From: a virus
Length of the DNA stretch: 26,293 bases
Direction: 5' to 3' (one strand)
UHGV virus genome: UHGV-0165251
Shown here: positions 2,208-14,591 of the stretch, in pieces
How the letters are laid out: every line of letters begins with the position of its first letter
Numbering within the stretch: position 1 is the stretch's first letter
Translations under genes and position numbers: made by a program
Notes under the pieces: model-generated
What the model saw: only the letters and a program-made list of their open reading frames with translations
Database searches by the model: none
What the model was told of the DNA's origin: nothing

Positions 2208-2949
2208 GGTTAACCTCCTGCGGCGGTTCTGGTAGCGGCATCCAGTGTGTGACGTTGCGGCTCTGCGTTTCGAAAAATTCATCACCATCACGGACGACAT
2301 CAAAAAACTCACCGTCTCGATATTGCGCATAAAGAACGAATGCGCCATCACATAAAATAATTACGTGCTGACCATCATCTGGCATTCGCTCACTACAGCT
2401 TATCCAACCATCCGGAGTTACTGGAGAGTTGCCATCCAGCGCGTTCAACTTGTAAGCCTGGCTTACAGGTTCGGCTTCCAGTTCTGCTATGCGCTTCTCT
2501 GATGCTTCAAGTAACGCCTGCTTATCGCGTAGCGCTTCTTCCAGTTCAGCAACATGGCACTCACTATCAATAAGGTTGTTCTCTGCGGCTTCCAGCTCAA
2601 CACGCAGCTTCCCTACCGTTAGCGCAATATCCTCGTTCTCCTGATCACGGTTTTTGATGTATTGCTGGTTTCTTTCCCGTTCATCCAGCAGTTCCAGCAC
2701 GGTAGCCGGATTGGCTGCAGCGATGAATTCAGCATTGGCCTGCTGTTCCATTTGGAAATCTTCATCGAAACCGCTTTCAGGATGCGCTCCTTCAATTCTG
2801 CAAATGGGAATATATCCAGCAACTTCACGATGAATTAGCGCATCATCACCATCAAATCGGCTCTCTCCATATTCGAGCGACCATACACCACACGTTGCTT
2901 TTTCTGCCTTTTCACGCAGTGCCTGATAGTCAATTTTCATACTCGCCAT
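2200..2949 (-). CDS. ea22: Ea22-like protein with a central coiled coil and a DUF551-like C terminus
   Basis: Central segment LLDERERNQQYIKNRDQENEDIALTVGKLRVELE matches lambda Ea22 as I recall it; N and C termini differ. Confidence 0.75.
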   Translation of the reverse strand: MASMKIDYQALREKAEKATCGVWSLEYGESRFDGDDALIHREVAGYIPICRIEGAHPESGFDEDFQMEQQANAEFIAAANPATVLELLDERERNQQYIKNRDQENEDIALTVGKLRVELEAAENNLIDSECHVAELEEALRDKQALLEASEKRIAELEAEPVSQAYKLNALDGNSPVTPDGWISCSERMPDDGQHVIILCDGAFVLYAQYRDGEFFDVVRDGDEFFETQSRNVTHWMPLPEPPQEVNRG

Positions 2950-3581
2950 CCTTCACAGTTGTAATCACGACATCCTTCAAAATCATATGGGCTGTACTGC
3001 CAGGTAATTTTTCCGCAATGCGGACAATTCCAGCGCACCTTACCGCTTCGCGACTTTTTTCTTCTGTTTTGTTTTTTCAACCAGTCAGGTATGACCAAAC
3101 CTGCGCCCTGAACCATTGTTCTGCGGTTAAAATTATTGATATTGAACGTCCGGCGCTTTGCTGCATCGGCAATGGAAAATGGCAACCAAACTATTCCTGG
3201 CTCGTTTTTGTTGGCGACGCTAAAGATGGTTGCTTTACTGAAGTCATCTGTTGGCAATCCACCGTGTTGAAGCCAGTAAACATCGTTGCCGTTCCAGCTA
3301 CCTTTTTTGTAGGCCACATACGCAGTGCAATCTGACTCAATCAGGCTTTCTGTAGGGATGTACTGGCAATCAACGTGCCACACAGCCATTGCATCCACGC
3401 TATCAGCACAAACAGGCTGATCGATATCTCGCCCACAATTCCAGGCTTTTTGGGCTTCTTCCTGCGTGTAAACATGTGCGCGATCGATATCAGAACTGTA
3501 ACCATTGCCGTTATGGCAATGGAATGAGGCGTTAGTACCCACAGTTTCACGCAAGCACATCATGTAAAAGCGGTTATTCAC
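2937..3581 (-). CDS. hypothetical protein with a C-terminal Cys-rich zinc-ribbon-like motif
   Basis: 214-aa ORF; CPHCGK...C..C...C at the C terminus; start overlaps the upstream stop (GTGAATAA); no family recognised. Confidence 0.6.
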   Translation of the reverse strand: MNNRFYMMCLRETVGTNASFHCHNGNGYSSDIDRAHVYTQEEAQKAWNCGRDIDQPVCADSVDAMAVWHVDCQYIPTESLIESDCTAYVAYKKGSWNGNDVYWLQHGGLPTDDFSKATIFSVANKNEPGIVWLPFSIADAAKRRTFNINNFNRRTMVQGAGLVIPDWLKKQNRRKKSRSGKVRWNCPHCGKITWQYSPYDFEGCRDYNCEGWRV

Positions 3582-4011: not shown

Positions 4012-4308
4012 TCAGTCATTACTGATAGCGCCATAGCGTGAGCGGTAATTACGCAGGCGCGGGTCGATATATTCAGGGAAGTGGCTATATGTTGCTTTGC
4101 GGAATGGTCGGATTGATGTCTGGTAAATTCGCTCTCGTTCTTCTTTCTCTGCAAGCCATATGCAGTGGCGAAATTCCTTTTCCTCTTTCGTTTCCTGCGG
4201 TAGCGACATTATCAGGTCGTAGTTTTTTCTGAATTTATCCAGCACCTCCGATACGGAATTGCCGGAACAGCGGCGCGCGTCGTCCGCACCATACAGAGGC
4301 GCTGGCAT
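4012..4308 (-). CDS. hypothetical protein (98 aa)
   Basis: ATG 9 nt after aagga, directly downstream of the ssb stop; no family recognised. Confidence 0.5.
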
Positions 4309-11916: not shown

Positions 11917-13289
11917 GACAGGATATCGAAGCGAGCGTTATCGGTGGCCTGCTGATTGGTGGATTAACTCCAACCGCCAGCGACGTTCTGGCAACGCTGG
12001 AGCCGGAAGCGTTTTCAATTCCGCTCTACCGGAAAGCCTTCGAGGTTATCCGCAAGCAGGCGAGAAACAGAAACCTAATCGATGCGCTGATGGTTGCCGA
12101 GGCGTGCGGAGAGGAGCATTTCACGTCAATCCTGATGACCAGCAAAAACTGCCCGAGTGCCGCAAACCTGAAGGGATATGCAGGAATGGTCGCGGATAAC
12201 TATCACCGCCGTCTGGTGCTGGAAATCATGGATGAAATGCGTGAACCAATTCAGAGCGGAACCATCGACGCATCGAGTCAGGCGATGGATGAACTTGTAA
12301 AGCGTCTTTCAGCCATCAGAAAGCCCCGTGACGAGGTTAAACCGGTACGGTTAGGGGAAATCATCACTGACTACACTGACACGCTTGACAGGCGTCTGAG
12401 GAACGGAGAAGAGTCAGATACCCTGAAGACCGGAATCGACGAACTTGACGCCATCACCGGAGGGATGAACGCAGAAGACCTGGTGATTATCGCCGCTCGT
12501 CCTGGTATGGGTAAAACCGAACTGGCGCTGAAGATTGCCGAAGGCGTTGCAAGCCGTGTTATTCCTGGTTCTGACGTCCGGCGCGGAGTGTTGATTTTCT
12601 CGATGGAAATGAGCGCATTGCAGATTGCAGAGCGAAGCATTGCCAACGCCGGGAGGATGTCGGTTAGCGTACTGCGAAATCCTGCATCGATGGATGACGA
12701 AGGCTGGGCGCGTGTTGCTAACGGCATGAGTCAGCTTGCAGATTTGGATGTATGGGTAGTCGATGCCTCGCGGTTATCGGTCGAAGAAATTCGCTCAATC
12801 GCAGAGCGGCACAAACAGGAAAATCCAAACCTGTCACTCATCATGGCGGATTATCTTGGCCTGATTGAGAAGCCGAAAGCAGATCGCAACGACCTCGCAA
12901 TTGCTCACATCTCCGGAAACCTGAAGGCGATGGCGAAAGACCTGAAAACACCGGTTATTTCCCTGAGTCAGCTTTCACGCGATGTTGAGAAGCGACCAAA
13001 CAAACGCCCGACAAACGCAGATTTGCGTGATTCAGGAAGCATTGAACAGGACGCAGACTCAATCATCATGCTCTATCGGGAAGCGGTATATGACGAGAAC
13101 AGTAGCGCCGCGCCATTTGCTGAAATCATCGTGACGAAAAACCGTTTTGGCTCACTTGGTACGGTTTACCAGCGGTTCTGCAACGGACACTTTGTTGCAT
13201 GTGACCAGGATGAAGCCAGACAGATTTGCACAACATCAAATGCACCCGCTGCGCGTGGCAGACGATATGCACAAGGGGCTGACGTATGA
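11913..13289 (+). CDS. DnaB-family replicative helicase (P22 gp12-like)
   Basis: 458 aa; Walker [10 protein letters not shown], DnaB motifs (SLEMS-like [18 protein letters not shown]); start overlaps the O-like stop (ATGA). Confidence 0.9.
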
Positions 13290-13315
13290 ACATCTACATC
13301 ACTGAGATAATAACA

Positions 13316-13345
13316 GGGGCTATTTACACAGTAGCCCTTTTTTAT
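13316..13345 (+). terminator. tR2-like rho-independent terminator
   Basis: gggcta-tttacacag-tagccc followed by ttttttatt; at the position and of the form of lambda tR2. Confidence 0.6.
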
Positions 13346-13367
13346 TGGATTAAGAACGAGGGGGATC

Positions 13368-13583
13368 ATGATGGACACCGTTAACGGAATGTGTTCAGAC
13401 GCACCGCGTGCCAAAAAATGTAAATGCGGAAAATCACCGACAATATTCGACATGGAGAACGGGTGCCAAATCTACTGCGCTAACCACGCCGCTGTGGCGG
13501 CCGCGAATTATCGCAGTGCGGTAACGGAGTGGAATAACCTGAAATCTGTTAGAGAGGGAAGTCATGAAAAAACTAACCTTTGA
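13368..13583 (+). CDS. hypothetical small Cys-rich protein (71 aa)
   Basis: gaggggg RBS; C..C.C...C..YC pattern; lies in a ~220-bp insert between tR2 and ninB. Confidence 0.5.
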   Translation: MMDTVNGMCSDAPRAKKCKCGKSPTIFDMENGCQIYCANHAAVAAANYRSAVTEWNNLKSVREGSHEKTNL

Positions 13584-14004
13584 AATTCGATCCCCAGCAC
13601 ATCAGCAAAACGCTATTCACGCAGTACAGCAAATCCTTCCAGACCCAACCAAACCAATCGTAGTAACCATTCAGGAACGCAACCGCAGCTTAGACCAAAA
13701 CAGGAAGCTATGGGCCTGCTTAGGTGACGTCTCTCGTCAGGTTGAATGGCATGGTCGCTGGCTGGATGCAGAAAGCTGGAAGTGTGTGTTTACCGCAGCA
13801 TTAAAGCAGCAGGACGTTGTTCCTAACCTTGCCGGGAATGGCTTTGTGGTAATAGGCCAGTCAACCAGCAGGATGCGTGTAAGCGAATTTGCGGAGCTAT
13901 TAGAGCTTATACAGGCATTCGGTACAGAGCGTGGCGTTAAATGGTCAGACGAAGCGCGACTGGCTCTGGAGTGGAAAGCGAGATGGGGAGATAAAACTGA
14001 ATGA
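13564..14004 (+). CDS. ninB: NinB (Orf-family recombination mediator)
   Basis: MKKLTFEIRSPAHQQNAIHAVQQILPDPTKPIVVTIQERNRSLDQNRKLWA... near-identical to lambda NinB as I recall it. Confidence 0.9.
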   Translation: MKKLTFEIRSPAHQQNAIHAVQQILPDPTKPIVVTIQERNRSLDQNRKLWACLGDVSRQVEWHGRWLDAESWKCVFTAALKQQDVVPNLAGNGFVVIGQSTSRMRVSEFAELLELIQAFGTERGVKWSDEARLALEWKARWGDKTE

Positions 14005-14591
14005 ACAAATACCGACTTATTTACGCAGATCCGCCTTGGCAATATCGCGACAAAGCCAACGATGGCAATCGCGGTGCTGGACATAAATACGATGTTATGA
14101 ATGTTCAGGACATTTGCCGACTGCCAGTATGGGATTTAGCGGATCCAGAATCTTGCTTGTTAGCGATGTGGTGGGTGCCGACACAGCCAGCCGAAGCGCT
14201 AAAGGTAATTGAGGCGTGGGGATTCAGGTTGATGACTATGAAAGGCTTTACTTGGCACAAAACCAATAAGCACAAAGGCAACAGTGCGATCGGAATGGGG
14301 CATATGACCCGGGCAAATAGCGAGGATTGCTTGTTTGCCGTTCGAGGGCGGTTACCTGAGAGAATGGACGCTTCAATATGCCAGCACTTTACCGCACCGA
14401 GAATGGAGCACAGTGCAAAACCACCGATCGTAAGAGACATGTTAGCTAAGTTGCTTGGCGACGTGCCGCGCTGTGAGTTATTTAGCCGCGACAAAGTGAC
14501 CGGGTGGGATATGTGGGGCAATCAGTGCGACTCCGATTTTGAACTGGCTACCGGCATGGCGATTAAACCATGCAAAATGGTGATCGCATGA
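14001..14591 (+). CDS. DNA N6-adenine methyltransferase, MT-A70 family (orphan)
   Basis: N-terminal [10 protein letters not shown] (DPPW catalytic motif); occupies the slot of lambda ninC; no adjacent restriction endonuclease. Confidence 0.8.

Follow-up and report, generated by a model that had tools for sequence, protein, structure and literature searches.

We analysed a 26,293-nucleotide stretch of DNA (UHGV virus genome UHGV-0165251; hereafter the window), which is a mosaic P22-like/HK97-like lambdoid phage or prophage of E. coli. Its closest DNA matches are vB_EcoP-611R6, HF4s, CUS-3, HK620 and HK544, and its genes run in the order cI, cII, O, DnaB-type helicase, nin region, Q, lysis genes, terminase and portal. 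Position 13289 is the last of the helicase gene, after which come a 32-aa open reading frame (ORF) with a hairpin, a Shine-Dalgarno (SD) sequence, a small cysteine-rich gene of the HK97 gp60 family, and ninB. The features of this interval, all on the plus strand, are as follows.

13286..13384, plus strand: 32-aa ORF (HK97 gp56; 'ninA' of CUS-3), which encloses the terminator and is separate from the gp60 gene.
13315..13346, plus strand: tR2-equivalent intrinsic terminator with a 10-bp stem, a 5-nt loop and a T-run, from a terminator scan and RNA folds.
Roughly 13349..13551, plus strand: inserted cassette comprising the SD and most of the gp60 coding sequence, about 203 extra nt relative to lambda and JEP4.
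13358..13364, plus strand: gp60 Shine-Dalgarno GAGGGGG, read from the sequence.
13371..13583, plus strand: gp60-family coding sequence, 70 aa plus stop, identified by its PHROG 6308 match, identity to HK97 gp60 and purifying selection.
13392 and 13464, plus strand: codons of the other invariant cysteines, C8 and (within the ligand span) C32.
13419..13487, plus strand: putative zinc-ligand codons C17 (13419), C19 (13425), C36 (13476) and H39 (13485).
13552..13563, plus strand: ninB ribosome-binding region GAGAGGGAAGTC, within the 3' end of the gp60 coding sequence and identical in lambda and JEP4.
13564..14004, plus strand: ninB, encoding the Orf recombination mediator (Pfam NinB, E 1.1e-54; PHROG 72).

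A sequence-only reading of this DNA had flagged positions 13290-13583 as one Cys-rich small ORF inserted between tR2 and ninB. The gene does lie inside that range, which also takes in the terminator and the 32-aa ORF (13286-13384), neither of them part of the gene. The longer reading of the gp60 ORF, 13368..13583 (+), begins at an extra ATG specific to the window and gives the 71 residues originally proposed. Most relatives have CTG at this first of the two ATGs (13368), so the conserved start is the second ATG, at 13371, and the protein has 70 aa as in HK97 gp60. The strong ribosome-binding site attributed to the ORF is present as GAGGGGG at 13358-13364; it is kept in most HK97-type loci, and divergent homologues carry AAGGAG instead. 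The gp60 stop codon occupies 13581-13583, and the overlap with the ninB start at 13564, also noticed earlier, amounts to 20 nt. Because gp60 ends 20 nt inside ninB, the ribosome-binding site of ninB falls within the gp60 reading frame.

The ORF is not new; it is the already annotated hypothetical protein HK97 gp60/PHROG 6308. Residues 2-71 of the longer reading align with positions 1-70 of the 70-position PHROG 6308 profile ('unknown function'; E 3.8e-54), and the window protein is 98.6% identical to HK97 gp60 (AAF31135), which is encoded between gp55 (DnaB-like)/gp56 and gp61 (NinB). Full-length identities of 97-99% were obtained to hypothetical proteins of HK97, HK446, HK544, mEp506, CUS-3, HF4s, IME10 and a Salmonella phage. 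At least 1000 public contigs encode the 70-aa protein without any change, with labels such as 'hypothetical protein' and 'prophage protein', and full-length gp60 copies are found in 146 of 5426 complete E. coli genomes (about 2.7%). The family is nevertheless very narrow and confined to enterobacterial lambdoid phages. Among 5.8 billion proteins clustered at 90% identity it accounts for 16 clusters, its most divergent member, P0017, being 51% identical. When 1.84 billion cluster representatives were scanned in full with a HMMER profile, only 8 proteins were returned, all of them members or frameshifted fragments. A scan of genome contigs (one genome per species) gave a single spurious match of 15 residues. 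No family match was obtained in Pfam, NCBIfam or PADLOC, nor any match to PDB sequences with the single protein or with the profile, and no literature on the gp60 protein was found in the searchable literature, including the supplements of an accessory-gene screen (PMC12373910).

Proteins named 'HNH endonuclease' that fall in the 90% cluster of gp60 were rejected as a clustering artefact, being fusions of the NinB N-terminus to an HNH domain without gp60 sequence. In these fusions, which were found in some E. coli and Salmonella prophages (P0039-P0051, and in L039 a 195-aa ORF starting MKKLTFEIRSPA), the first ~32 NinB residues are joined to an HNH endonuclease; apparently a homing endonuclease has inserted in ninB.

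Annotation practice might suggest that gp60 is a chance ORF in spacer DNA. RefSeq/PGAP leaves it without a coding sequence in the complete E. coli genomes inspected: there is no gp60 coding sequence in the one region inspected, L007 (NZ_CP054407.1) 2921-3196, and ninB is the only gene annotated under the four full-length matches listed from such genomes. The omission leaves an 'intergenic' gap of ~275 bp before ninB; GenBank phage records annotate gp60. The lack of a Pfam family would also fit a chance ORF. Against it stand the substitutions that separate the window from three divergent homologues with available DNA (L004 3255-3482, L005 25-240 and L006 4001-4201), where 34-38 of the 43-53 differences fall in third codon positions, dN is 0.06-0.11 and synonymous sites are saturated. 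Among the three divergent copies themselves, dN/dS is 0.14-0.19. The frame is intact in all 85 copies from the fetched loci, and both lineages carry an SD motif (GAGGGGG or AAGGAG). The chance-ORF reading is thus already refuted, and we give it practically no credence. Conservation and synonymous bias, on which the sequence-only reading had staked the coding status of the ORF, are both present, with substitutions overwhelmingly synonymous. gp60 is a real protein-coding gene under strong purifying selection.

The position of this gene relative to sibling phages was defined by a three-way alignment of the window, JEP4 and lambda, with P22-type phages also compared. JEP4 carries the same DnaB-type helicase as the window. 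After the upstream gene, all three have in common ATGACCATCTACAT.ACTGAG.TAATAACAGG, then a hairpin and T-run at the same place, and finally GAGAGGGAAGTCATGAAAAAAC with the ninB ribosome-binding site and start. The distance from the T-run to the ninB SD is about 20 nt in lambda and JEP4. The window has ~203 nt more, close to the 'about 220 extra bp' estimated at the outset, and its homology with lambda and JEP4 restarts at GAGAGGGAAGTCATG after the cassette. The core of the window hairpin has been replaced too, beyond the ~203-nt insertion. gp60 is absent from lambda, P22-type phages and JEP4 despite the matching flanks of lambda and JEP4. Since those two phages have the same flanks without the gene, gp60 is a ~200-bp insertion, and it sits on an optional cassette of that size between the tR2 terminator and the ninB ribosome-binding site. 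The insertion proposed relative to lambda is borne out by the locus comparison suggested for checking it, with lambda and JEP4 lacking the gene at shared flanks.

The window hairpin aligns by position with lambda tR2 and differs from it in stem sequence. The lambda tR2 hairpin GGCCTGC/GCAGGCC has a folding energy of -15.7 kcal/mol and the window hairpin GGGGCTATT/AGTAGCCCC one of -13.2 kcal/mol, both with z about -4 against shuffles. RNA folds of the window terminator gave -19.4 kcal/mol (z -3.0) and, for a second fold, -13.2 kcal/mol (z -4.0). Because it has the same place and structure as its lambda counterpart with a different core sequence, identification of the hairpin as the tR2 equivalent is supported. 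A search of the window against Rfam found no RNA family.

The 32-aa ORF that encloses this hairpin is doubtful as a coding sequence. Lambda, P22 and HK97 types all share its first ~32 nt. Of 85 loci, about a dozen have 1-nt indels that break the ORF or join it to gp60, and these keep the hairpin. An RNA element is more likely than a peptide gene. The ORF begins at the stop codon of the upstream gene; its counterparts are the 26-aa NinA of P22 type and, in lambda, an unannotated stretch (L089 1069-1150). Peptides of this type are hydrophobic (MTIYITELITG…LF.W), the stem sequences of the hairpin differ and both still pair, and one fusion to gp60 yields the 98-aa protein P0002. In one IMG/VR locus (L055), ~95 nt before the gp60 start, a different upstream sequence joins inside the 3' arm of the terminator (…AAGCAAACCCTTTTTTATTGG), a recombination junction within the hairpin by which the 5' arm is lost.

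The lambda nin region is transcribed from pR after N-dependent read-through of tR2. Non-essential genes make up this region, and they are packed so tightly that stop and start codons overlap (PMC8022706). A consensus scan of positions 12800-14300 detected no plus-strand promoter-like site between the terminator and the gp60 start and no terminator-like site downstream of gp60. Because of the missing promoter-like site, and judging by the layout, gp60 would be a delayed-early gene, with transcription that starts at pR and reaches it only when N allows read-through of tR2. By the same layout, gp60 and ninB are probably coupled in translation.

This arrangement bears directly on the earlier suggestion that gp60 is a moron, a term reportedly defined by Juhala, Hendrix and colleagues in 2000. 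As a classical moron, gp60 would be expressed autonomously from the prophage for the benefit of the lysogen. It is indeed an extra gene between genes that are adjacent in related phages (in JEP4 and lambda, ninB directly follows tR2), and its distribution is patchy, as the 146 full-length copies in 5426 complete E. coli genomes illustrate. It lacks a plus-strand sigma-70-like promoter before its start and a terminator after its end, however, and it overlaps ninB. Its G+C content is also ordinary (0.484, at the 56th percentile of 213-nt windows, the whole window having 0.470). With no promoter or terminator of its own and an in-line place in the early-right operon, gp60 does not fit the strict sense of the term, and we regard the classical moron as very improbable.

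We examined the arrangement of genes around gp60 across loci. In HK97-type loci, five different upstream genes abut a single module composed of the 32-aa ORF/terminator, gp60 and ninB, with the change in sequence placed precisely at the ATG overlapping the stop codon of the upstream gene. In the divergent gp60 lineage there is no terminator and the gene directly follows another small gene. The gene after gp60 is always of Orf type and comes from three lineages (PHROG 72 close, PHROG 72 divergent, and PHROG 319/DUF1367), with the exception of L006, in which a Pfam Lar_restr_allev gene (41.7 bits) stands in tandem between gp60 and ninB. The position just upstream of ninB was then surveyed in a sample of 80 ninB loci (L094-L173). 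Most are lambda-like, with Ren or a helicase, a 74-nt spacer containing tR2, and ninB. gp60 occupies the slot in 4 of the 80; other occupants are a Lar-like protein and proteins of 84 aa (MPFIKLTM…), 78, 79 and 106 aa. All inserted proteins end in ..HEETNV, a tail dictated by the 20-nt overlap with ninB. Small Cys-rich ORFs also occur at other spacings before ninB, in L099 (89 aa, …CPVCYG…CELCHGHG…DAWNN) and L113 (68 aa).

Lar-family genes in two further loci (L092 and L093) have the same 5' junction (…GGAGTGAGTATGAGC; …GGAATCAAAGTGAAGGAGTGAGTATGAGC) and 3' overlap as divergent gp60 homologues, and the gp60-like P0017 and the Lar-family P0018 both precede the same DUF1367/Orf-type gene. A polymorphic slot with common junctions marks the place between tR2 and ninB as a hotspot for cassettes whose boundaries are fixed, with gp60 and Lar as alternative or tandem occupants. 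Near-identical DNA is seen between a gp60-like gene (L090 ~985-1060) and a Lar-family gene (L091 ~4175-4250), starting in both exactly at the codons for W-N-E (TGG AA(C/T) GAG), ~17 nt ahead of the start of DUF1367; in these two loci, the 3' boundary of the cassette falls at the WN motif that the proteins have in common. Exchange driven by micro-homology or common ancestry may account for this shared DNA.

The constancy of the downstream gene raises the possibility that gp60 is an accessory factor of NinB/Orf recombination, co-translated with NinB and acting on the same substrates (ssDNA, SSB, RecA loading). Its place directly upstream of an Orf-type gene from three lineages, usually overlapping it, would be explained in this way. 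Most ninB phages do without gp60, however: it was found in only those 4 of 80 sampled loci, and lambda, P22-type phages and JEP4 lack it. Unrelated small genes including Lar hold the same position, Lar separates gp60 from ninB in L006, and the linkage is accounted for equally well by a conserved hotspot for insertions where the nin region begins. We therefore consider a NinB helper improbable, at roughly one chance in eight or nine. More generally, because unrelated small genes occupy the slot too, position in it predicts function weakly. Directly after ninB, at the place of lambda ninC, the window carries an MT-A70-type DNA methyltransferase gene (14001-14591, plus strand; Pfam E 4.7e-25; PHROG 359). 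This is an optional nin-region gene for which an anti-restriction role is plausible.

The gp60 protein has a mass of 7.6 kDa and a pI of 8.3. The description of the ORF as Cys-rich is correct: cysteine makes up 7.1% of its residues, compared with 1.3% in ten long genes of the window. In the 70-aa numbering, the pattern is C8-x8-C17-x-C19-x12-C32-x3-C36-x2-H39. All six of these residues are unchanged throughout alignment A4, down to P0017 at 51% identity, as are G20, I25-F26 and a C-terminal block, N46-Y-R-S-A-V-x-E-W-N55. One natural variant carries C32G, a weak hint that C32 may not be a ligand.

Structure prediction with AlphaFold2 initially gave a poor model (6-sequence alignment, pLDDT 57.6). 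With P0017 added, pLDDT rose to 67 with pTM 0.53 and 71-79 in the core, one of five models being confident. The better model has strands at 24-28, 31-36 and 40-44 and a helix at 47-62; C17 and C19 precede the first strand, and C36 and H39 lie at the turn between strands 2 and 3. This placement of the knuckles is consistent with a zinc ribbon. The predicted ribbon would combine two knuckles, C17-x-C19 and C36-x-x-H39, with a three-stranded sheet and a C-terminal helix that ends in NYRSAVxEWN. Foldseek searches of the first model against PDB and BFVD gave no match. With the better model, nothing significant and no annotated Lar was found in BFVD; the best row was an unnamed 121-aa viral protein (E 0.027, TM 0.58, 51 columns), and lower rows named 'zinc-ribbon family protein' and 'TFIIB zinc-finger' had E about 1. 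Taken together, the residue pattern and the model suggest that gp60 is probably a small zinc-binding protein with a zinc ribbon. The zinc-binding part of the sequence-only reading therefore remains plausible on the strength of five invariant cysteines, one invariant histidine and a predicted beta-sheet plus helix, and a significant fold match does not accompany it.

The other part of that suggestion, a regulator, fares less well. A zinc-finger nucleic-acid-binding regulator would be compatible with the small, basic character of the protein (pI 8.3) and with the Lys/Arg cluster at its first knuckle (PRAKKCKCGK). No DNA- or RNA-binding family or fold was matched, however, and sibling phages whose regulatory circuits are otherwise identical do without gp60, so that we think this role quite unlikely. 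The predicted zinc ribbon would most likely act by stoichiometric binding to another macromolecule and not as an enzyme, with the conserved C-terminal helix as the likely interaction surface and a host factor as our best guess for the target.

The shared slot raises the question of whether gp60 belongs, as a highly divergent member, to the Lar (RalR) family; like Lar and Ral, it would then dampen type I restriction of incoming or replicating phage DNA. Lar/RalR is said to alleviate restriction and enhance modification, an activity reportedly described by King and Murray in 1995. Several observations favour membership. gp60 has the same cassette slot and junctions as Pfam Lar_restr_allev genes, and its layout is collinear, with near-equal spacing, with that of Rac Lar/RalR: K-P-C-P-F-C-G, 18 residues, C-x2-C, 17 residues and W-N-K-R in the latter; K-K-C-K-C-G, 17 residues, C-x2-H, 15 residues and W-N-N-L in gp60. 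A greedy hhalign alignment sets C17, C19, C36 and H39 of gp60 on four Lar cysteines and its EWN on AWN. A regular expression for this layout matched only gp60 and Lar among 3809 local ORFs and 0 of 61,120 shuffles, although it was designed post hoc with both families in view and carries little weight.

Set against the Lar zinc-ribbon pattern CPFCG…CxxC with its helix ending in AWN/AWE-RR, the gp60 pattern CKCG…CxxH…EWN is similar in spacing and lacks the CPFC motif, the fourth cysteine and the RR. Direct comparisons of sequence and profile do not support membership. PF14354 gave no hit for the window protein at E<=1, nor for P0009, P0010 or P0017 at E<=10, whereas the Lar of L006 scored 41.7 bits in the same run (gathering threshold 28.6 bits). 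BLASTP of gp60 against three Lar proteins (L006 Lar, P0018 and Rac RalR) was blank, and hmmsearch --max on a small local database with filters off found no Lar protein. The hhalign probability was 10%, with a default alignment covering only the WN helix/tail; trimming the tails and adding Rac RalR changed it to 3.4% (P=0.013). The tandem occurrence of gp60 and Lar in L006 further argues against simple redundancy. We also considered a match between P0017 and P0018 (E 8e-6) as a bridge between the families and rejected it, since its score comes mostly from a C-terminal tail encoded by shared downstream DNA. The strongest statement that these comparisons allow is that gp60 looks like Lar and sits where Lar sits. 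We do not file it as a Lar-family member, and put membership at about one chance in seven.

RalR is also reported to be a DNase toxin (PMC4041452). In the Rac prophage of E. coli K-12 (L176 2737-2928, minus strand), the former lar is now ralR, 'endodeoxyribonuclease toxin RalR', with the antisense sRNA antitoxin ralA. The protein that gave the Lar family its name is therefore credited with two distinct functions.

Among the single functions proposed for gp60, counter-defence of the Lar/Ral type comes first, since genes of the Lar family are exchanged into its slot. We would give it between one chance in seven and one in five. In our ranking it precedes a NinB/Orf helper and then a DNA-binding regulator, with a classical moron unlikely. 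A more specific proposal is that gp60 represents a hitherto unrecognised family of small counter-defence proteins built on a zinc ribbon. Such a protein would be structurally akin to Lar, would trade places with Lar and other small genes at the tR2-ninB hotspot, and would inhibit, for example, restriction or other DNA-targeting immunity. This is a long shot. If gp60 does act in anti-restriction or counter-defence, the anti-immunity repertoire of phages would gain a new family of small proteins, and the tR2-ninB junction would be a place to mine for anti-immunity genes. Overall, the explanation that we favour with moderate confidence is that gp60 is a non-essential accessory gene of lambdoid phages whose product probably folds as a zinc ribbon and might bind a host factor. 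Its anatomy holds nothing surprising for the nin region and no demonstrable link to a characterised family. Even so, a clearly coding, conserved 70-codon gene has been missed by RefSeq/PGAP although it is present in about 2.7% of complete E. coli genomes, and in HK97 gp60 lends itself to a simple restriction-alleviation or defence-panel assay.

gp60 can be compared with several known systems. Like a moron of HK97 or lambda, it has been added between two genes that are neighbours in sibling phages; in contrast to morons, it is without its own promoter and terminator, has ordinary G+C and lies in-line in a delayed-early operon. NinD and NinF are, like gp60, small non-essential proteins with paired cysteines, encoded in the same operon with overlapping stops and starts. 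They belong to different Pfam families, and BLASTP revealed no similarity of gp60 to NinD or to Rac YdaE. Lambda Ral (66 aa) is also a small, non-essential, Cys-containing early lambdoid protein, but it belongs to the pL operon and has another cysteine pattern; its best BLASTP match to gp60 had E 4.7 over 4 residues, which is no similarity.

A further parallel is Lar/RalR (PF14354). Both are phage proteins of 60-80 aa in which G comes after an N-terminal Cys knuckle, another knuckle lies ~17-18 residues further on and a C-terminal helix, predicted in gp60, ends in W-N. In several phages Lar/RalR genes occupy the same slot upstream of ninB/orf-type genes with identical junctions. The knuckles of Lar/RalR are CPFC and CxxC, whereas those of gp60 are CxC and CxxH (or CxxxC). 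gp60 has two further invariant cysteines (C8 and C32), and there is no significant sequence or profile similarity between the two. HK97 gp60/PHROG 6308, finally, is the same protein in the same place, after a DnaB-type helicase or other replication genes and before ninB; it has 70 aa, and the window copy differs in its one extra in-frame upstream ATG (71 aa).
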